Of a stretch of DNA of 59,462 bases, positions 29,994 to 37,427 are shown in pieces. Under the pieces are notes generated by a model. That model saw only the letters and a list, made by a program, of their open reading frames with translations, did not search any database and had not been told where the DNA came from. This stretch comes from a virus. Both the position numbers and the translations under genes were made by a program. The number at the start of each line of letters is the position of its first letter. The stretch's first letter is position 1. Location of the stretch: the UHGV virus genome UHGV-1364420; one strand, 5' to 3'.

Positions 29994-30129
29994 CTCTTAA
30001 AACAGCGGAGATTAAAAGTAACCACAATACCGAAAATAAAGCTTGCACGATCTAAACGGCTCTGTTAAGTTTCGTTCTGTCTTGTGGTATAACCCTCTTA
30101 AACATTAAACAGATCATGTGGAGTGCAAT

Positions 30130-30888
30130 ATGGAAAACGTAGAACTGACCCCTGAACAGAAAAAAGAAAAAGCCGCCCAGGCGAAAAAAGAAGCCGCTGA
30201 AAAAGCGAAACTGGCTAAAGAGCAGAAAGATCAGCAGAAAGCTGATGAAAAAGCTCAAGCCGAAGCGAACAAGCTGGCTGAAGCCAACGAAAAAGTGACC
30301 GCCGAATTCACCACCCTGAAAGGTCACACCGATAACGGTACCGCTTCTCTGGCATCGTTGACCGAAGAAAGCACCGTCGATCAGGTTAACACTGCGGGCG
30401 AAAACGCCGGCGCTTCTCTGAAAGCTGCTCGCGAATCGCTGAAGCTGATCAAAGCGACCGTTAAAAAACTGAAAGAGCCGGGTGAGTTGGCTGCTGCTGT
30501 AACTTCGGCTGAAGGCCTGGTCTCCTCTCTGGACGAAGCGCTGAAAGGCGTCAAAGGTAAAGTGGCCGCTGCCAAAAAAGCAGCGAAAGAAGCTGAAAAA
30601 GCTGAAGCGAAGCGCCTGAAAGACGAAGCGAAAGCTGCCAATGCAATGCCGAACCAGAACGGTATCACTCGTCCGCGTCCGGATACCGCTTGCGGTAATG
30701 CCTGGGCACTGATGGACGAACTGTCCGCCAAGCTGAGCCAACCGGCGCCAATCAGTATCGTCCTCCAGGGCGCTGAGCAACGTGGTCTGAACTACGACAC
30801 CGTTAAGACTCAGTATGCGCGCTGGAAGAAGTTCAACGGCATCGAAGGTCGCGTCGCTATTCCTCTGCCGCAGGGTCTGCTTGACTAA
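30130..30888 (+). CDS. Lys/Ala/Glu-rich coiled-coil protein with a globular C-terminal domain; unknown function; codon usage typical of highly expressed host genes
   Basis: Start at ATG 30130 after GGAG. Strong bias to CTG, GAA, AAA, GCT, CCG and CGT codons. Has its own promoter-like element and a strong terminator. Confidence 0.5.
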   Translation: MENVELTPEQKKEKAAQAKKEAAEKAKLAKEQKDQQKADEKAQAEANKLAEANEKVTAEFTTLKGHTDNGTASLASLTEESTVDQVNTAGENAGASLKAARESLKLIKATVKKLKEPGELAAAVTSAEGLVSSLDEALKGVKGKVAAAKKAAKEAEKAEAKRLKDEAKAANAMPNQNGITRPRPDTACGNAWALMDELSAKLSQPAPISIVLQGAEQRGLNYDTVKTQYARWKKFNGIEGRVAIPLPQGLLD

Positions 30889-31033: not shown

Positions 31034-31122
31034 GGATAGTTGGCTGAGTTGGTCTAAGGCACCTGGTTGCTAACCAGACGAGTCGCAAGGCTCCATCCGT
31101 TCGAATCGGATACTATCCGCCA
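31034..31122 (+). tRNA. tRNA-Ser (anticodon GCU), type II with a long variable arm
   Basis: Folded by hand. 7-bp acceptor stem GGATAGT/ACTATCC. Discriminator G, then CCA. Anticodon stem of 4 bp plus a C-A mismatch, with loop TTGCTAA. Variable arm of about 16 nt with stem GAGTC/GGCTC. T-arm ATCCG-TTCGAAT-CGGAT. Confidence 0.7.
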
Positions 31123-31167: not shown

Positions 31168-31869
31168 ATGAAGCTGAATTCTCAGACCCCAGAAAAGAAA
31201 GATTATCAATCTACTCTTGAAGTACATTCCATTTTCAGCACTATTCAAGGCGAAGGTCCTTTCTGCGGTCGTCCTGCTGTATTTGTCCGCTTAGCTGGCT
31301 GCAATCTTCAGTGTCCTGGCTGTGATACTGAGTATACCGACAACCGTCAACGTATGCGATACGAAGCGATTCTTTTTAGTATCAAGCATCGCTTGGCTGT
31401 CACAGACAGTAATGCAAATCTAATCGTAATTTCCGGTGGCGAACCTTTCCGCCAGAACATCGCCCCTTTCTGCGACTTCCTTATCGAAAACGATTTCGAT
31501 GTTCAAATTGAAACCAACGGCTCTATGCAAATACCAATGGAGCTCTCTCAGTTGGTTACGGTTGTGTGTTCCCCTAAAACCGCTAAATTGCATCCGAGCG
31601 CCCTGCACCGTGCCAACGCCTTTAAGTATGTAATGAAGGCCGGGAACATGCGGGAGGAGGACGGTTTACCCCTGCAAGCTTTAGATCATCGTGCCACCCC
31701 TTATATTGCGAGACCTCATAAGTCATTCCGTGGTAAGATATATTTACAGCCGATGGACGAGAAAAACGTATTTCAGAACTTTAAAAATACTCAAGCGGTC
31801 CTGGCTAGTGCAATGAAGCATAACTATACAGTTCAACTTCAGATTCATAAGCTATTAAATGTGGAGTAG
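31168..31869 (+). CDS. queE: 7-carboxy-7-deazaguanine synthase QueE (radical SAM)
   Basis: GCNLQCPGCDTEY radical-SAM cluster motif, matching QueE GCNLRCSYCDTPY. Confidence 0.8.
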   Translation: MKLNSQTPEKKDYQSTLEVHSIFSTIQGEGPFCGRPAVFVRLAGCNLQCPGCDTEYTDNRQRMRYEAILFSIKHRLAVTDSNANLIVISGGEPFRQNIAPFCDFLIENDFDVQIETNGSMQIPMELSQLVTVVCSPKTAKLHPSALHRANAFKYVMKAGNMREEDGLPLQALDHRATPYIARPHKSFRGKIYLQPMDEKNVFQNFKNTQAVLASAMKHNYTVQLQIHKLLNVE

Positions 31870-31871
31870 TT

Positions 31872-32132
31872 ATGAGCGAAAAGTACATGTTTGAAAACCG
31901 CCCTATTGGCGGCATGACCTGGAACGAACTTCAGGAAGCAAGTTGTCACGGTGCATTGGTTTGCACCAAAGAAAGTGATGTTGAAAAAGCCGGTCCTGTT
32001 TACAAGCTCCGTGACCCTTGTAGCGAAGAAGTATGCTATGTGTTCACTGATGAAGCTGAACAGTTTAGCAATCCGTACCGCACCGCTGATGAAGCTGCGG
32101 AAATGAGTCGCAAATATGCGGACGAATTATGA
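31872..32132 (+). CDS. Hypothetical protein
   Basis: 86 aa ORF inside the deazaguanine cluster. Confidence 0.35.
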   Translation: MSEKYMFENRPIGGMTWNELQEASCHGALVCTKESDVEKAGPVYKLRDPCSEEVCYVFTDEAEQFSNPYRTADEAAEMSRKYADEL

Positions 32133-32326
32133 CACCACAAGAAGCCAAAGAACATGCTAAGAAAATCAAAGATGCTGTAGCAGATTTGAACTTAGCAATC
32201 CGGGAAGGTCACAACGAAGGCGTTTATGTCCAACTTGTGATCAGACAAGTTCAACAAATCGGCTGTCAGTATTACGATATTGTTGAATTAGAAAACATTA
32301 GTGCCAACATTGATATTCTGGAGTGA
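32129..32326 (+). CDS. Hypothetical protein
   Basis: 65 aa ORF. ATGA overlaps on both sides. Confidence 0.3.
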   Translation: MTPQEAKEHAKKIKDAVADLNLAIREGHNEGVYVQLVIRQVQQIGCQYYDIVELENISANIDILE

Positions 32327-33063
32327 TCATGAAAGTATCTGCATTCAAAGTGAACGAAGTTGTTGAATTTGTGAAGGGTAACTCCGCCGTTGTTGTCCTG
32401 TCTGGCGGCCAGGACTCCGTGACCTGCTTAGGGCTTGCTCTTCGCAACTTTAAAACTGTACACGCTGTGGGGTTCGTATATGGGCAGAAGCACGAAGTTG
32501 AAATCCACTGCGCCAAGCGTATCTGTGAAGAACACGGCGTACCGTTTACCGTCTTTTCAATCCCCGCCCTGCAATCTATCGGGAACAGTGCGCTCATTCG
32601 CGGAACTGAACAAGGCGATGTCAGTGCTAAACATGCCCAAAACGCTAACCTTCCGGCTTCCTTTGTGCCGAATCGTAACGCCCTCTTTTTAACCACGGCC
32701 CATGCTTATGCGCAAAAAGTCGAAGCGGATAGCCTCATTACTGGTGTTTGTGAAACTGACTATAGCGGTTATCCAGATTGCCGTGACGAATTCATTCGTT
32801 CACTTGAAGAAACCCTAAACCTCGGTTATCAAACTAACATTAAAATCCATACGCCATTAATGTGGTTAAATAAAGCTGAAACTTTTGCGCTAGCCAAAGC
32901 AGTTGACTTCTTGACGGTAGTTCTTGAAGATAGTCACACCTGCTATAATGGTGACCACAATACTAGCTTCGTATGGGGCTATGGCTGCGGCGAGTGCCCG
33001 GCTTGTAAACTCCGCGCAAACGGTTTTGAAGCTTTCATTCAAGCCAACCCTTTTAACTTCTAA
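32323..33063 (+). CDS. queC: 7-cyano-7-deazaguanine synthase QueC
   Basis: PP-loop SGGQDS. C-terminal zinc site CYNG ... CGECPACKLR. Confidence 0.85.
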   Translation: MIMKVSAFKVNEVVEFVKGNSAVVVLSGGQDSVTCLGLALRNFKTVHAVGFVYGQKHEVEIHCAKRICEEHGVPFTVFSIPALQSIGNSALIRGTEQGDVSAKHAQNANLPASFVPNRNALFLTTAHAYAQKVEADSLITGVCETDYSGYPDCRDEFIRSLEETLNLGYQTNIKIHTPLMWLNKAETFALAKAVDFLTVVLEDSHTCYNGDHNTSFVWGYGCGECPACKLRANGFEAFIQANPFNF

Positions 33064-33097
33064 TCGTCCCGGCGCAAGGATGCGCCTCGGAGAAATT

Positions 33098-33706
33098 ATG
33101 AATACTAAAATTTCATCACCTGAAATTACGTTAAGCGAAGTTTATCCATCTCTTCGCGGTGATATTCAAGAAGGTGGTTGGGTAACTCTTCATAATAAAA
33201 GCTTTGCGGGTCAGAGAACTTCATTGGACGCATTAAGCCATTTACATATAGAGGGTTTTAATTTCGATATTGAAACCAATGACGGTAAATTGCTTCAAGA
33301 CGTTAATCTTAACGATGCTCACGTTAAATTAGAGTATAACGTCGCGCCCGCTGTTGAAACTTTTCCTGCAAACGGAATAAATTGTTGGCGTTTATCAAGT
33401 AGACGTCGGATATTTCCTAATCCGACTTTTGCCAACAAAGGATACTTTGAAGGTACTGTCTGTGCGCAAGGTCCGATCATGCACTACGCTAACGACAAGT
33501 ACAAGCGTGAAATCAAGCCCGGCGTTTTTGTTGATGTTTACGACGTGATTGATTGTTTTGAAGTAACCTCTGGCGCCTTGCAACATGCCATTAAGAAGCT
33601 TCTGGCTGCTGGAAAGCGCGGACACAAAGACTACGAGCAGGACTTGATTGATATCCTGTCCTCTGTTGAGCGTGCTTTATTCCAATATCAGGAAAAGACA
33701 AAATGA
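33098..33706 (+). CDS. Hypothetical protein inside the deazaguanine cluster
   Basis: Start at ATG 33098 after GGAG. 202 aa. No motif recognised. Confidence 0.4.
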   Translation: MNTKISSPEITLSEVYPSLRGDIQEGGWVTLHNKSFAGQRTSLDALSHLHIEGFNFDIETNDGKLLQDVNLNDAHVKLEYNVAPAVETFPANGINCWRLSSRRRIFPNPTFANKGYFEGTVCAQGPIMHYANDKYKREIKPGVFVDVYDVIDCFEVTSGALQHAIKKLLAAGKRGHKDYEQDLIDILSSVERALFQYQEKTK

Positions 33707-33966
33707 AATTTCGTAAAAAACCAGTTGAGATTGAGGCTTTTCAGTTTCAACCCTTTCTTGACTACTCAAATGGAACTTTGCCAGGGTGGTTTGCTAGCGC
33801 CGTGATAGAGGGTATTGCCATTGACAATGGTGATCATTTAATCATAAAAACTCTAGAAGGTGATCATCGAGCGGATAGCGGTGATTATATTATCCGGGGT
33901 GTAAAAGGTGAACTTTATCCTTGCAAACCTGATATTTTTGAACTTACTTACGATAAGGTGAACTAA
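33703..33966 (+). CDS. Hypothetical protein
   Basis: 87 aa. ATGA overlap. Confidence 0.35.
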   Translation: MKFRKKPVEIEAFQFQPFLDYSNGTLPGWFASAVIEGIAIDNGDHLIIKTLEGDHRADSGDYIIRGVKGELYPCKPDIFELTYDKVN

Positions 33967-34452
33967 ATGAAATTCATCATCGCATATCTGTTAATGGTTG
34001 TTTTCGTAAACCTCGGCTTTAGTTACCTGCCGATTGTAACCACTCCGCTGGGCCCGGTTCCGCTTATGGCGTTCTTCGTGGGCTGTGTGTTCGTCCTGCG
34101 CGATTACGCCCAGCGTAGCGCTGGCCATAACGTCCTGTGGGCTATAGCGCTAGCGTGTTTAATTAGCTGGTGGTTGGGCGATCCCGTTGTGGTAGTGGCA
34201 TCTGTAACTTCTTTTGCTGTTAGTGAGTTACTGGACTATACTATCTTTACGATCACGAAAAAGCCTTTCCATCAGCGGGTGGTAATAAGCTCATTCATAG
34301 CCGTTCCTGTTGATTCATTCATATTCCTGCATATGATTGGATTCGCTTCGTGGGGGTCGATCATTGCAATGAGCCTTTCCAAATTCGCAGCATCGGCTGT
34401 ATTATATGTCATCTATGAAGGCCGTAAACGAAACGGCTTAACAGTCGCCTAA
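33967..34452 (+). CDS. YhhQ/COG1738-like membrane protein; putative 7-deazaguanine precursor transporter
   Basis: Polytopic membrane protein. VLRDYAQRSAGHN and SELLDYTIFTITKK resemble the YhhQ blocks TDLTVRIFGAPLAR and GQILDVHVFNRLRQ. Confidence 0.45.
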   Translation: MKFIIAYLLMVVFVNLGFSYLPIVTTPLGPVPLMAFFVGCVFVLRDYAQRSAGHNVLWAIALACLISWWLGDPVVVVASVTSFAVSELLDYTIFTITKKPFHQRVVISSFIAVPVDSFIFLHMIGFASWGSIIAMSLSKFAASAVLYVIYEGRKRNGLTVA

Positions 34453-34494
34453 TAATGGGCTAGCCATGGAAGGCTTTAACTGAGGTGAATAAGA

Positions 34495-34689
34495 TTGAGC
34501 ACAAATCACTATATTGTATGTAAGTCCTGTAAAAAGTGCATGGATATTGCTCAAGGTTATCCCGATGAAGTCCGTCCAACTTCGTCTTCAAATGATATTG
34601 TTAGCTTTCTTGACAAACATAGAGGTCATGAATTAATGTTTGTAAGCGAGAACAATGAAGACATTTTACCAGAATGCGAGGAAGTTTAA
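34495..34689 (+). CDS. Small Cys-rich protein (probable TTG start)
   Basis: 64 aa. CKSCKKC plus a His pair. GAGGTG RBS. Confidence 0.3.
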   Translation: MSTNHYIVCKSCKKCMDIAQGYPDEVRPTSSSNDIVSFLDKHRGHELMFVSENNEDILPECEEV

Positions 34690-35205
34690 ATGTCATACTC
34701 TGTAATTCGTACTCACGAAATTTGCGCTGGACACCGGGTAGTAGGTCACGAAAGCAAATGTCGTCACCTGCATGGTCACAATTACAAATTTCATTTTAAA
34801 GTTGCACCGAAGCCGCTTGACAGTGAAAGCGTTAAAGGTGACCCGCTGGACCAGGTTGGTCGCGTTATCGACTTCAGTGTTGTTAAGTCTACTCTCTGCG
34901 AGTGGCTGGAAACCAATTGGGATCATAAATTCCTGCATTGGGAACACGATAAGCTGATCGAAGGCCTGGTTCGTTTAGTTCACGATGAAGAAAACTTACC
35001 AGCCGATCAGCGTTGTGTTCAGGATAAAGACGAAACTCATTTCCTGAACTCTTTGGTAGAACTGCCGTTCAACCCTACGGCGGAAAACCTGGCCGCTCAT
35101 ATGGTCAACGTCATTGGGCCTGAGCTGCTCGACCCTTACGGCGTTGAATTAGTAGAATGCCGCATTGAAGAAACCTCAAAATGTCACGTGGAGTACACCA
35201 AATAA
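34690..35205 (+). CDS. queD: 6-carboxy-5,6,7,8-tetrahydropterin synthase QueD
   Basis: CAGHRVVGHESKCRHLHGHNY contains the QueD Cys and HGH zinc motif. Confidence 0.8.
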   Translation: MSYSVIRTHEICAGHRVVGHESKCRHLHGHNYKFHFKVAPKPLDSESVKGDPLDQVGRVIDFSVVKSTLCEWLETNWDHKFLHWEHDKLIEGLVRLVHDEENLPADQRCVQDKDETHFLNSLVELPFNPTAENLAAHMVNVIGPELLDPYGVELVECRIEETSKCHVEYTK

Positions 35206-35855
35206 TGGAACAGTTAAAATTCGAATCGGTTGAAACCTACAGCGACACGAAGATCGACGACCCGCGCAACGTTAGCGAAATTAAAACACTGATCGTGAAT
35301 GTGCTGCGCGTTATTGAGCGTCCTGACGATCTTCTGCGCGAAGGTCTGCGTGAAACACCTACCCGCGTAGCGAAAGCCTACGCTACCTGGTTCGGCGGAT
35401 ACGATGTTGACATCGCTAGCTTGTTCAAAGTTTTTGAAGATGGTGCGGAAGGTTCGAATGAAATGGTTATCGTTCGTGATATTCCTGTCTATAGCCATTG
35501 TGAGCATCATATGGCCCCTATCATTGGTCGCGCTGTGGTCGGCTATGTCCCCAATGGAAAAATCGTTGGGCTTAGCAAGTTATCTCGTGTGGTTGATGCT
35601 TTTTCCCGGCGCCTACAAGTACAGGAACGGCTGACTAACCAAATCGCGGACGCTATCCAGGAACACCTGCAACCGCTGGCTGTTTGCGTTTATATTGACG
35701 CCAAGCATATGTGCATGGAATCGCGGGGCGTTAAACAGGTATGTGGCTCAAGCACAATTACAAAGGCTTTCCGCGGAGCTACCGATCTAAACTCCGTTGA
35801 ATATATTGCTGAAGGCGGGTTTTGGCGGCGCGAGTTCCTTGAAGCCTGTAAATGA
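35205..35855 (+). CDS. folE: GTP cyclohydrolase I FolE
   Basis: VYSHCEHHMAPI ... GYVPNGKIVGLSKLSRVVDAFSRRLQVQERLTNQIADAIQ is nearly colinear with the E. coli FolE active-site region. TAATG coupling with queD. Confidence 0.9.
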   Translation: MEQLKFESVETYSDTKIDDPRNVSEIKTLIVNVLRVIERPDDLLREGLRETPTRVAKAYATWFGGYDVDIASLFKVFEDGAEGSNEMVIVRDIPVYSHCEHHMAPIIGRAVVGYVPNGKIVGLSKLSRVVDAFSRRLQVQERLTNQIADAIQEHLQPLAVCVYIDAKHMCMESRGVKQVCGSSTITKAFRGATDLNSVEYIAEGGFWRREFLEACK

Positions 35856-35877
35856 TTAAAAACGTAGTATATAATTA

Positions 35878-35899
35878 GGCCCAGAGATGGGCCTTTTTT
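35878..35899 (+). terminator. Rho-independent terminator
   Basis: GGCCCA-GAGA-TGGGCC followed by TTTTTT. Confidence 0.6.
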
Positions 35900-35911
35900 A
35901 TTGGAGATAAT

Positions 35912-36145
35912 ATGAAAAAGATTATTTGGCGTGCGGGTCAATTTAAATACCGTGACGCAACCTTCGCGTATGTTAATCAAATCAAAGTGGCTGTAGTTAC
36001 TACATTGCATGATGGTAGTAAATGCGACGCGCGTCTTTTGCTGCCGGGTATGCCAAAAAGCACCAACTCATTTTCAACTATCGACAGTGCTAAACGTGCT
36101 TTAGAAAAACGTATCAATGATTGGTTTGAATTGGTGACACAATGA
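35912..36145 (+). CDS. Hypothetical protein
   Basis: 77 aa ORF. Confidence 0.35.
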   Translation: MKKIIWRAGQFKYRDATFAYVNQIKVAVVTTLHDGSKCDARLLLPGMPKSTNSFSTIDSAKRALEKRINDWFELVTQ

Positions 36146-36339
36146 CCAGAAAACAAAAGTTAGAACAAATCTTTTATGAATTGAAAGCGGCCACGCAAGA
36201 CGCTGCTTCTTGCGTTCAAAACGATGCGCCTAACCATATCTTAATTGATCAGTTAGTGCAATCTCAGTCGACAGTGTCTAACGCTTTTAATAAAGCTTGG
36301 CGCGATTTGATTAACTTAGGACTGGAAGATGAGGTATAA
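36142..36339 (+). CDS. Hypothetical protein
   Basis: 65 aa ORF. ATGA overlap. Confidence 0.3.
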   Translation: MTRKQKLEQIFYELKAATQDAASCVQNDAPNHILIDQLVQSQSTVSNAFNKAWRDLINLGLEDEV

Positions 36340-37263
36340 ATGAACTTATATCTTGCGGCTGTTTACACAAACGGATTTCGCAAAGGTCAGTCGACTTATC
36401 CAAAGCTGAACGAACGCGAAGCCGAAATTGTGGATACCATACCCAACATCTTGGAGTCGTACCACTATGTTAATCGTCAGAAATATGTCGATGAAATGCG
36501 GGCCGACGGAGCTCAGGTATTTCTTGACTCAGGGGCTTTCTCTGCTTGGAACATGGGAGCAACGATCAGCTTACCTGGCTATTGCAAATACATTCAAGAA
36601 AACGAAGACATTATCCGAAAGGATGATGGAGTCATTATGGCCTCTGTACTTGACGGAATCGGAGATCCCCTTCAGACTTGGCGAAATCAAAACGAAATGG
36701 AAGCCAGAGGAGTTACTCCTTTACCCTGTTTTCACTTCGGCGAGGATGAACGATATCTTGAGTATTACATGTCAAAATATCCCTACATTACCCTCGGAGG
36801 TATGGTCGGAAAGACTGTCGAACAACTTATCACATGGCTTGACCGAATTTGGGAAAGATACATCATTGACGGGGCAGGGCGCCCTAAAGCCAAATTTCAT
36901 GCCTTTGGGATCACCTCCGTCCGTGTTATGGAGCGATATCCTTGGTATAGCGTCGATTCATCATCCTGGATTCAATTCGGAGCTTATGGCTCAATGTTTA
37001 TCCCCAACGGGGTACCTTATCGTGTTTCAGAAAAAGCCGGAACCATACACGAAGCTGGCAGACACGTACTCACTCTTAACCCACTTGAAAGGGCTTATAT
37101 AGACAAGGTTATTGAAGAGAGCGGTTTTGAACTTGAGCGTTTAACCACAATATATGAAACTCGCGCCACCTTCAATATGTGGAGCTATCGCCAGATCGCA
37201 GATCGTATCAATTTAGATAAACACTCCCGCATATTCGAACCAACGATAATGGAGTTATTCTGA
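36340..37263 (+). CDS. dpdA: DpdA, tRNA-guanine-transglycosylase-like DNA 7-deazaguanine transglycosylase
   Basis: TGT-like fold. FLDSGAFSAW catalytic-Asp block matches the TGT LDSGGFQ block. Lies within the que cluster. Confidence 0.7.
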   Translation: MNLYLAAVYTNGFRKGQSTYPKLNEREAEIVDTIPNILESYHYVNRQKYVDEMRADGAQVFLDSGAFSAWNMGATISLPGYCKYIQENEDIIRKDDGVIMASVLDGIGDPLQTWRNQNEMEARGVTPLPCFHFGEDERYLEYYMSKYPYITLGGMVGKTVEQLITWLDRIWERYIIDGAGRPKAKFHAFGITSVRVMERYPWYSVDSSSWIQFGAYGSMFIPNGVPYRVSEKAGTIHEAGRHVLTLNPLERAYIDKVIEESGFELERLTTIYETRATFNMWSYRQIADRINLDKHSRIFEPTIMELF

Positions 37264-37427
37264 TGAGTGTTAAATTATTAGGTAAACACTTTCTTCTCTA
37301 TCCTATCGAGGAACTTCAAAGAATGTATGAGAACCAAAACATTATAACTCGTATTGTTCATATCAATACCCGCGAACCCTATCTTTCAATAGTTTTTATT
37401 TGTAAGGATGAAATGGAAGATGCTTGA
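37263..37427 (+). CDS. Small hypothetical protein (54 aa)
   Basis: TGATG coupling to the dpdA stop. Below the 60-aa track threshold. Confidence 0.25.
   Translation: MSVKLLGKHFLLYPIEELQRMYENQNIITRIVHINTREPYLSIVFICKDEMEDA

Follow-up and report, generated by a model that had tools for sequence, protein, structure and literature searches.

Two questions are raised by the cluster of 7-deazaguanine genes in this phage: whether it modifies the phage's own DNA and, if so, with which base. The window (the whole stretch of DNA analyzed; 59,462 nucleotides, ~59.5 kb) is an entire Queuovirinae siphophage genome. The Queuovirinae were named after queuosine-pathway genes. Genes for preQ0 are a common trait of this group (PMC10484667). 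The cluster (31168-37427) encodes QueE, QueC, a short Vut_1/YhhQ-family membrane protein, QueD, FolE, and DpdA. All of its ORFs lie on the plus strand, at the coordinates given beforehand by an ORF listing (Table 1). It is flanked by a helicase gene on one side and by clamp and DNA polymerase genes on the other, with gene order as in relatives. The cluster is real but already known, and it is ordinary because near-identical clusters have already been published.

Table 1. Features in and beside the cluster, in order along the window
Feature	Position	Strand	Basis
tRNA-Ser (anticodon GCT)	31034..31122	+	ARAGORN; Rfam RF00005, 47.9 bits
QueE, 7-carboxy-7-deazaguanine synthase (radical SAM), 233 aa	31168..31869	+	phrog_2076, motif, CAjan identity
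o86, 86 aa, variable slot	31872..32132	+	
o65a, 65 aa	32129..32326	+	phrog_26258, E 2.6e-6
QueC, 7-cyano-7-deazaguanine (preQ0) synthase	32323..33063	+	PF06508, TIGR00364, motifs
o202, 202 aa, two-domain protein	33098..33706	+	PHROG, tblastn, model
o87, 87 aa	33703..33966	+	phrog_419
Vut_1/COG1738 ("YhhQ-like") multi-pass membrane protein, 161 aa	33967..34452	+	PF02592, CAjan gp41 identity, hydropathy segments
o64, 64 aa, TTG start	34495..34689	+	ORF listing
QueD, 6-carboxytetrahydropterin synthase, 171 aa	34690..35205	+	PTPS profile, motif
FolE, GTP cyclohydrolase I	35205..35855	+	PF01227, TIGR00063, CEHH
Terminator-like GC-rich hairpin AGGCCCAGAGATGGGCCT, then T-run	35877..35902	+	best-scoring site
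o77, 77 aa	35912..36145	+	ORF listing
o65b, 65 aa, directly upstream of dpdA	36142..36339	+	phrog_20065
DpdA, DNA guanine transglycosylase, DpdA1 subfamily, 307 aa	36340..37263	+	phrog_887, fold model, active-site residues
o54, 54 aa, after dpdA	37263..37427	+	

The cluster encodes four enzymes for preQ0 synthesis, as an earlier note on this DNA had claimed. Family profiles were matched by all four, and their catalytic and metal-binding motifs were found. QueE matches phrog_2076 (E 4.2e-62). It contains the CxxxCxxC cluster motif at residue 45 (CNLQCPGC), and its only Pfam matches are Fer4_12 and Radical_SAM. QueC matches PF06508 (E 5.6e-76) and contains the SGGQDS (ATP) and CGECPAC (Cys-rich, zinc) motifs. 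It is a single domain without a Gat (amidotransferase) extension. Gene callers place its start at the ATG at 32329 (244 aa), and the longest ORF runs from 32323. QueD matches PTPS (PF01242; E 2.9e-22) and contains the Cx3HGH motif as CRHLHGH. Like CAjan QueD, it contains ~50 inserted residues that the PTPS profile lacks. FolE matches PF01227 (E 6.7e-62) and contains the zinc motif CEHH. Its start is most likely at 35205, with a 1-nt overlap with the queD stop codon; the longest ORF begins at 35181. In the profile search that the earlier note proposed, QueC exceeded the TIGR00364 equivalog cut-off (245.8 bits versus 150.3) and FolE that of TIGR00063 (190.5 bits versus 181.6), whereas QueE stayed under the curated cut-off of every NCBIfam QueE model (E about 2e-29 to 4e-20), QueD stayed under that of TIGR03367 (E 5.6e-17), and DpdA had no match in the Pfam scan, the TGT profile included.

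The short Vut_1/YhhQ-like protein is a putative preQ0 importer. It scored 23.5 bits against PF02592 (E 8e-5), missing the gathering score of 27.2, but all 40 of its aligned family members match that profile (best E 2.5e-9). Pairwise comparison with E. coli YhhQ showed no similarity, and hhalign gave this pair a probability of 16.7% (E 0.0015). The protein belongs to the Vut_1/COG1738 family and shares 64% identity with CAjan gp41, called YhhQ in the literature (PMC7544227).

DpdA matches phrog_887 (E 2e-80) and reaches E 1.3e-3 at best against the NCBIfam DpdA model. It is 57 to 62% identical over its full length to DpdA of phages 9g (57%), Iggy, and CAjan (62%). The AlphaFold model (pLDDT 89.8) has a tRNA-guanine transglycosylase fold, and its top PDB matches are tRNA-guanine transglycosylases only (archaeal, bacterial, and eukaryotic), the best being 1j2b_A (E 3.9e-7, probability 1.0). 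tRNA TGTs are known to contain a Cys3-His zinc site. DpdA lacks this site because it has just two Cys residues. The pocket and catalytic residues of CAjan DpdA are D63, S64, F67, D105, H132, G153, G154, F189, and D206 (PMC7544227). All nine are kept here and are invariant across 43 homologues, and Asp206 and Asp63 are predicted to be the nucleophile and the general base, respectively. The TGT-like DpdA of the earlier note was thus confirmed by identity, fold, and an intact preQ0 pocket.

Since this is also the fold of tRNA TGTs, the cluster might be an auxiliary metabolic module that raises tRNA queuosine during infection and leaves the DNA unmodified. DpdA still goes by the name queuine tRNA-ribosyltransferase in the public annotation of Klebsiella phage vB_Ko_K4PH164 and in PHROG, and a tRNA gene adjoins the cluster. 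We consider this explanation very improbable. The adjacent gene encodes tRNA-Ser(GCT). Queuosine is known solely from tRNAs with a GUN anticodon (Asn, Asp, His, and Tyr), and Ser tRNAs are not known to be substrates, so that no functional link between this tRNA and the pathway is implied. DpdA does not contain the C-terminal tRNA-binding domains of arcTGT (307 aa versus 576 aa in the template). The genes for later steps towards queuosine (queF, queA, and queG) are absent from the Pfam scans and the K4PH164 annotation. The 62%-identical DpdA of CAjan is needed for dPreQ0 in DNA (PMC6884629), and the DNA of EC151, whose DpdA is 95% identical, is restriction resistant (PMC8310023).

Modification of the DNA itself has experimental support in two relatives: CAjan DNA is modified and protected, and EC151 DNA resists restriction. 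Enterobacter phage EC151 (MW464860) shares the order tRNA-Ser(GCT), queE, queC, ~250-aa ORF, preQ0-transporter-like gene, queD, folE, small ORFs, dpdA, clamp, and DNA polymerase. The EC151 paper (2021, Viruses) describes the same six-gene set and a tRNA-Ser-GCT gene in the genome (PMC8310023). Nucleotide identity is ~81% over 71% of the region, and protein identities are 95% (DpdA), 93% (YhhQ-like), 85% (QueE), 81% (QueC), 73% (FolE), and 65% (QueD). EC151 lacks o86, o65a, o87, o64, and o54. Its DNA resists Acc65I, KpnI, ApaI, and XmaI, that is, type II enzymes with G/C-containing sites, and is cut by DraI (PMC8310023). This published pattern differs from that predicted by the GA and GGC motifs of CAjan.

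The nearest deposited genome is that of K4PH164 (OY979482, unclassified Queuovirinae), with 95% nucleotide identity over 74 to 87% of the query. Its DpdA, YhhQ-like protein, and o87 are each 100% identical, QueE is 90% identical, and QueD is 87% identical. It lacks o86 and o65b, and its o202 homologue is longer (242 aa) and just 59% identical. Its cluster is annotated as QueE-like, QueC-like, QueD-like, GTP cyclohydrolase, and queuine tRNA-ribosyltransferase.

Escherichia phage CAjan (Seuratvirus) has genes for all six assigned functions, at the corresponding place in its replication module. Full-length identities are 62% (DpdA), 60% (QueE), 66% (QueC), 66% (QueD), 81% (FolE), and 64% (YhhQ-like). 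Its dPreQ0 system comprises 12 genes: folE, queD, queE, queC, yhhQ, dpdA, and six without an assigned function. There, yhhQ directly follows queC, and the unassigned genes gp40 and gp39 come after yhhQ instead of before it. CAjan DNA contains 70,628 dPreQ0 per 10^6 nt, ~32% of G, with other derivatives at <6 per 10^6 nt (PMC6884629). Its dPreQ0 sites are GA and GGC (PMC7544227). A dpdA mutant lost dPreQ0 and its DNA became restriction sensitive (PMC6884629). Deletion of folE or queC brought modification under the nanopore detection cut-off, and deletion of yhhQ had no effect; the queC mutant retains ~12-fold less dPreQ0, ascribed to host-made preQ0 (PMC7544227).

The cluster is very probably a CAjan/EC151-type (DpdA1) system with which the phage places 7-deazaguanines in its own DNA after replication. 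The earlier note had assigned it to the restriction-evading phage systems, and this interpretation is supported. The observations made here concern gene content, motifs, fold, and homology; for this phage we infer the identity of the base, the modification level, and the target motif. FolE would convert GTP to dihydroneopterin triphosphate, from which QueD would form 6-carboxytetrahydropterin. The radical SAM enzyme QueE would convert this to 7-carboxy-7-deazaguanine, and QueC, with ATP and ammonia, would yield 7-cyano-7-deazaguanine (preQ0). The YhhQ-like protein would probably import external preQ0 as a dispensable supplement. DpdA would act by TGT-fold base exchange, flipping selected guanines out of double-stranded phage DNA. 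Its Asp206 would cleave the glycosidic bond and preQ0 would be inserted, so that dPreQ0 would occupy a large minority of G positions, with an upper bound of ~32% of G if the GA/GGC specificity of CAjan applies. DNA modified in this way would withstand many type II restriction enzymes.

The predicted product is dPreQ0 because QueC is plain and Pfam scans of 20 further ORFs did not reveal QueF, Gat, ArcS, or any other tailoring enzyme; the K4PH164 annotation lists no tailoring enzyme either. Enterobacteria phage 9g (Nonagvirus, Queuovirinae) also encodes a DpdA1-type transglycosylase with FolE, QueD, and QueE, but it encodes a Gat-QueC that leads to archaeosine (dG+) (PMC10516641). A phage-encoded yhhQ-like gene, present here, is not reported for Nonagvirus in the literature consulted (PMC8310023).

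The same enzymes could instead leave another base in virion DNA (dADG, dCDG, dG+, or an undescribed derivative), through a QueC that stops early or an unassigned ORF, such as o202, that modifies preQ0 before or after insertion. Similar phage gene sets give eight different 7-deazaguanine derivatives, and QueC-like proteins can halt at ADG (PMC10516641). Eight ORFs within or beside the cluster have no assigned function, and any of them might alter product or specificity. The model of o202 is confident (pLDDT 87.7) and had no match in the PDB. We nevertheless regard another base as unlikely. QueC scores above its equivalog cut-off and shares 66% identity with the enzyme of dPreQ0-bearing CAjan. 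The cluster and the 20 further ORFs yielded no domain of the amidotransferase, reductase, methyltransferase, or formyltransferase type. The N-terminal domain of o202 occurs only in the EC151-like clade, and only its C-terminal ~70 aa, a helical domain common to many small phage proteins, is shared with CAjan gp40. Its PHROG matches are confined to this C-terminus, which has weak structural similarity to SaV-like/DUF3310 proteins (BFVD).

The other small ORFs are poorly conserved among relatives, which also counts against another base. CAjan counterparts are limited to the o202 C-terminus, o65a, and o65b, and most small ORFs are unrelated to its genes. o86 is absent from K4PH164, EC151, and CAjan, and relative L008 has a 148-aa ORF in its slot. 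o87 is absent from EC151 and CAjan. o64 contains four Cys as two CxxC-type pairs and occurs solely in K4PH164 and close relatives. o77 is 93% identical in K4PH164 and 68% in EC151. o65b is 48% identical to CAjan gp36 and 82% to its EC151 homologue. In EC151 and relative L009, a 139-aa NADAR-domain gene takes the place of o54. o65a is 95% identical in K4PH164. Its 65 aa are too few for a radical SAM enzyme, despite its phrog_26258 label. This label ("radical SAM domain-containing protein") is also attached to CAjan gp44 (70 aa).

Seven of these ORFs lie between queE and dpdA (86, 65, 202, 87, 64, 77, and 65 aa) and the eighth follows dpdA. The earlier count of at least seven interleaved small ORFs stood, but the one after queC is 202 aa long and starts at 33098. 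Seven of the eight were called independently on an identical public contig; the exception is the TTG-start o64, which is not called as a gene on public contigs.

Genes are gained and lost in these accessory slots among relatives, and the yhhQ-like gene of L009 is frameshifted by a 5-nt duplication. The cluster could accordingly be a decaying remnant, inactive in this phage, which we regard as the least credible explanation. All six core ORFs are intact with each catalytic residue kept, and packing is tight, with overlapping start and stop codons. The same layout recurs on at least 39 public contigs of phage size, and DpdA is 87 to 100% identical across many relatives.

The phage tRNA reported before the cluster was recovered by both ARAGORN and Rfam. 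It lies 45 nt upstream of queE. K4PH164 and EC151 carry it in the corresponding place, and the annotated record of CAjan shows none at this locus. The terminator-like hairpin separates folE from the dpdA sub-cluster. The hairpin and T-run are kept in K4PH164 and EC151, and also in CAjan with a different sequence.

By homology and predicted structure, the cluster is very probably a DpdA1-type phage dPreQ0 system. It encodes FolE, QueD, QueE, a plain QueC, and DpdA. The earlier note had described a complete 7-deazaguanine hypermodification cluster here, and both its observation and its interpretation proved correct by profiles, motifs, fold, and homology. Its coordinates and gene list agreed with our ORF calls, and the tRNA that it placed before the cluster was recovered with both ARAGORN and Rfam.

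The window covers the full genome of a siphophage: it encodes a terminase and head and tail proteins and has modules for lysis and replication. Genome-wide similarity and synteny place it in the Queuovirinae (siphophages of ~55 to 62 kb). Klebsiella phage vB_Ko_K4PH164 (OY979482; K4PH164 below), which has Queuovirinae in its taxonomy line, shares 95% nucleotide identity over 74 to 87% of the window, and the cluster is already annotated there. Enterobacter phage EC151 (MW464860) shares ~78 to 81% nucleotide identity. Escherichia phage CAjan has the same gene order in the replication module, and its modification module likewise lies between the helicase gene and the clamp and polymerase genes. 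Near-identical genomes were present in dozens of public assemblies. A search of the public assembly collection for the exact protein of o202, one of the small cluster ORFs (named by length in amino acids), matched 50 index blocks, and phage-sized contigs are present in 39 of these. The genes of an ENA contig of 59,517 bp are laid out as in the window. The EC151 paper reported the same six genes, including a "preQ0 transporter," plus a tRNA-Ser-GCT gene (PMC8310023). In the EC151 record, this tRNA is directly upstream of queE. Systems of this kind have been described before, and in practice so has this very instance. Beyond correct annotation it has little consequence, and its practical effects are already known. 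The K4PH164 label "queuine tRNA-ribosyltransferase" should be changed to DpdA, DNA transglycosylase.

The four preQ0-synthesis enzymes are all recognizable by their signature motifs, as had been claimed. FolE matches PF01227 (E 6.7e-62) and TIGR00063 (190.5 bits; cut-off, 181.6) and contains the zinc-site CEHH at residue 107. QueC (246 aa) matches PF06508 over residues 22 to 237 (E 5.6e-76) and TIGR00364 (245.8 bits; cut-off, 150.3). It contains SGGQDS and CGECPAC. QueD matches PTPS (E 2.9e-22), contains CRHLHGH (Cx3HGH) at residue 24, and is 66% identical to CAjan QueD. QueE contains CNLQCPGC, matches the phage QueE family phrog_2076 (E 4e-62), and is 60% identical to CAjan QueE; its Pfam matches are to generic radical-SAM only. 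The profile matches that the earlier note expected were obtained for all four enzymes, and those of QueC and FolE pass the NCBIfam equivalogs. QueD scores 61.9 bits against its equivalog, under the cut-off of 89.25, and QueE matches five QueE equivalogs (E 2e-29 to 4e-20) and reaches the cut-off of none.

QueC contains no amidotransferase (Gat) domain. Its sole other Pfam match is a weak, overlapping one to NAD_synthase, which has the same ATP-pyrophosphatase fold. A plain QueC without Gat is the feature that separates dPreQ0 systems from dG+ systems, and it is found here.

DpdA is the weakest link of the cluster at the profile level. It had been called TGT-like and expected to match TGT profiles. 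No match was found to Pfam (TGT) or in a PDB sequence search, and the NCBIfam bacterial DpdA model was matched at E 1.3e-3 only. The phage family phrog_887 was matched at E 2e-80. Homologues were present in 236 phage records, and full-length identity was 62% to CAjan and Seurat, 60% to Vid5, 59% to Iggy, and 57% to 9g. An AlphaFold model made from 43 homologues had a pLDDT of 89.8 and a pTM of 0.87. In a fold search of this model against the PDB, the matches listed were all tRNA-guanine transglycosylases. The best was Pyrococcus horikoshii arcTGT (1j2b_A; E 3.9e-7, probability 1.0, TM 0.55). In CAjan DpdA, Kot et al. ascribed a role in the preQ0/guanine pocket or in catalysis to nine residues, namely, Asp63, Ser64, Phe67, Asp105, His132, Gly153, Gly154, Phe189, and Asp206 (PMC7544227). 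The window DpdA has all nine at identical numbering, and they are invariant in the homologue alignment. Together, the phage homology with phrog_887, the predicted fold, and these nine residues settle the assignment as a predicted DpdA and confirm the TGT-like call. The window enzyme falls in subfamily DpdA1, together with that of 9g (PMC10516641).

The encoded pathway would lead from GTP through FolE, QueD, QueE, and QueC to preQ0. In duplex DNA, DpdA would then put preQ0 in place of selected guanines, with Asp206 acting as the nucleophile and Asp63 as the base. The exchange would occur after replication, and restriction sites with a modified G would become protected. It is improbable that the same enzymes give a virion base other than dPreQ0. 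Neither the cluster ORFs nor 20 other Pfam-scanned ORFs contain QueF, QueF-L, ArcS, Gat-QueC, or DpdL/M/N, in a scan that, outside the cluster, did not take in every ORF shorter than ~120 aa. K4PH164, whose genome is nearly identical, has no tailoring enzymes in its annotation either. We expect dPreQ0 as the end product in the window phage because QueC lacks Gat and the search for tailoring domains such as QueF and ArcS found none in the ORFs scanned. Homology, predicted fold, and active-site residues are direct results for the window; the identity of the base, the modification density, and the target motif are inferred.

CAjan is the experimental reference for dPreQ0; EC151 is a reference for restriction resistance only. 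CAjan DNA contains ~70,600 dPreQ0 per 10^6 nt, or ~32% of G; the modification is gone in a dpdA mutant, which is then restriction sensitive (PMC6884629). It occurs at GA and GGC and requires folE and queC (PMC7544227). With CAjan specificity, GA and GGC would account for 32.1% of the G in the window, or ~73,000 sites per 10^6 nt, as counted in the sequence. The same count on the CAjan sequence gives 28.1% of G. The DNA of the window phage would probably resist many restriction enzymes. In CAjan, dPreQ0 lowered nanopore read quality (PMC7544227), and this drop may apply to the window phage too.

In the EC151 paper, which predicts dPreQ0, the phage DNA resists Acc65I, KpnI, ApaI, and XmaI, is digested in part by SalI, and is sensitive to DraI (PMC8310023). 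The KpnI/Acc65I site (GGTACC) and the XmaI site (CCCGGG) contain no internal GA or GGC, and at XmaI sites a motif could arise only via the following base. The site of the partial cutter SalI (GTCGAC) does contain GA. The window has 36 sites for EcoRV (GATATC), 140 for HaeIII (GGCC), 34 for DraI, 13 for SalI, 7 for KpnI, and 6 for XmaI. The DpdA of the clade of EC151, K4PH164, and the window might recognize a context different from or broader than the GA/GGC of CAjan or the GA only of Iggy. We regard this as rather unlikely; it is hinted at because EC151, with a DpdA that is 95% identical, resists enzymes without GA or GGC in their sites. If true, the clade would help map the DNA-sequence specificity determinants of DpdA1 enzymes. 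As a secondary possibility, one of the unassigned cluster ORFs might tune specificity or product, and o202, with its SaV/DUF3310-like C-terminal domain, would be the main candidate.

Palindrome avoidance was tried as a source of the DpdA motif and rejected as uninformative. In the window, the observed/expected ratio of 6-bp palindromes is 1.05 for those containing GA and 0.73 for others containing G (Mann-Whitney p 0.0085; nine motifs tested). EC151 and K4PH164 have similar trends. The CAjan positive control, with its known GA/GGC specificity, has no such contrast (0.74 versus 0.67; p 0.35), and unmodified lambda leans weakly the same way as the window. With Markov expectations of 5 to 11, CTTAAG, ACGCGT, ATGCAT, GCATGC, and GTGCAC are absent from the window (0 each), and AGTACT and CTGCAG are nearly absent (1 each). 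All seven depleted palindromes lack GA and GGC; the GA-containing ones are at expectation.

The YhhQ-like protein contains 161 aa (E. coli YhhQ, 221 aa). It has ~five hydrophobic segments over residues 1 to 150 (merged Kyte-Doolittle windows of >= 1.6) and is predicted to be a multi-pass inner-membrane protein. Its match to PF02592 (Vut_1) has 23.5 bits (E 8e-5) and does not reach the gathering score of 27.2. All 40 of the 40 aligned homologues match PF02592 at E <= 1e-3 (best, 2.5e-9), and many homologues carry the source label YhhQ or queuosine precursor transporter. The protein is placed in the Vut_1 family because of the Pfam matches of its homologues. BLASTP against E. coli YhhQ found no similarity (E 1.0). 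An hhalign alignment of the family profile to E. coli YhhQ is weak (probability 16.7%, E 0.0015, 103 columns), yet it still superposes the conserved RD, SE..D, and PVD(T) motifs. CAjan gp41, treated as YhhQ in the literature, is 64% identical to the window protein. The name given in the earlier note, a YhhQ-family membrane protein, was upheld on these PF02592 matches and on gp41, and "YhhQ-like" is acceptable as a family label. Transport of preQ0 is a putative function. Deletion of yhhQ in CAjan left modification unchanged (PMC7544227). The counterpart in L009, a close relative of the window (Logan SRR30494806), has a 5-nt tandem duplication (GCGCA) within the conserved RDYAQR motif. The resulting frameshift leaves a product of 61 aa; the duplication is either a natural loss or an assembly error. 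The CAjan deletion and the L009 frameshift fit a dispensable, supplementary role for the YhhQ-like protein.

All substantial ORFs in the cluster are on the + strand and are tightly packed. The junctions are mostly gaps of 0 to 4 nt or overlaps. Four spacers are larger, with 45 nt between the tRNA and queE, 34 nt between queC and o202, 42 nt between the yhhQ-like gene and o64, and 56 nt between folE and o77. The likely folE start shares 1 nt with the stop codon of queD and is preferred to 35181 because it agrees with the EC151 annotation and with the genes called on an identical public contig. The tRNA is the only one in the whole window. The Rfam search returned this tRNA alone, with no preQ1 riboswitch or other RNA element. 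K4PH164, EC151, and CAjan also have a hairpin and T-run at this junction after folE, with a different sequence in CAjan. Because this conserved hairpin and T-run lies between folE and the dpdA side, the dpdA-clamp-polymerase genes may form a transcription unit separate from that of the preQ0-synthesis genes.

Coordinates of the cluster, its neighbors, and counterparts in related phages
Feature	Coordinates	Strand	Description
256-aa protein gene	30118-30888		Lys/Ala/Glu-rich product; just upstream of tRNA-Ser
tRNA-Ser(GCT)	31034-31122		Found with ARAGORN; same one from Rfam
Modification cluster	31168-37427	+	queE through o54
o86	31872-32132	+	Window ORF in the queE/o65a slot
queC	32329 (start)	+	ATG start in gene calls on identical public contig
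o202	33098-33706	+	Largest small ORF; two-domain
yhhQ-like gene	33967-34452	+	Putative preQ0 transporter
folE	35205 (likely start)	+	
Hairpin and T-run	35877-35902		Terminator-like, GC-rich; directly after folE; best-scoring such site in region
dpdA	36340-37263	+	
o54	37263-37427	+	Window ORF in the slot after dpdA
148-aa ORF, L008	L008:8585-9031		queE/o65a slot in a relative
139-aa NADAR gene, EC151	L003:8619-9038		Slot after dpdA in the EC151 record
yhhQ-like counterpart, L009	L009:2156-2890		Carries GCGCA duplication
139-aa NADAR gene, L009	L009:5439-5858		Slot after dpdA in L009

The 256-aa protein encoded before the tRNA is conserved in K4PH164 (99%), EC151 (80%), and CAjan, where gp46 (53%) bears the annotation "FtrA domain-containing." A Pfam search with the window protein gave no match.

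Of the eight small ORFs, seven are interspersed from queE to dpdA and the eighth comes after dpdA. Searched against Pfam at E up to 5, they had chance-level matches only. The CAjan cluster of 12 genes likewise holds six genes without an assigned function (PMC7544227). No homologue of o86 was found in K4PH164, EC151, or CAjan, and this ORF is unique to the window lineage. o87 and o64 are missing from EC151 and CAjan. o65b is the counterpart of CAjan gp36 and is missing from K4PH164. Because this conservation is patchy, it argues against an obligatory role of the small ORFs in modification.

The N-terminal domain of o202 is confined to the EC151-like clade. Its C-terminal helical domain of ~70 aa, with the conserved motif NDKYKREI..DVYDV..QHAxKKLLAAGxRGxK..DL, recurs in CAjan gp40 and in many small phage proteins. 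The o202 model is confident, with a pLDDT of 87.7. Sequence searches of Pfam and the PDB and a PDB fold search with the model returned no match. In BFVD, it matches mostly uncharacterized phage proteins, and the C-terminal domain weakly matches entries labeled SaV-like, DUF3310, and "nucleotide kinase."

Two slots of the cluster vary in content. The slot between queE and o65a holds o86 in the window and a 148-aa ORF in L008. The slot after dpdA holds o54 in the window and a 139-aa NADAR gene (PF08719; "swarming motility"/YbiA-like) in EC151 and L009.
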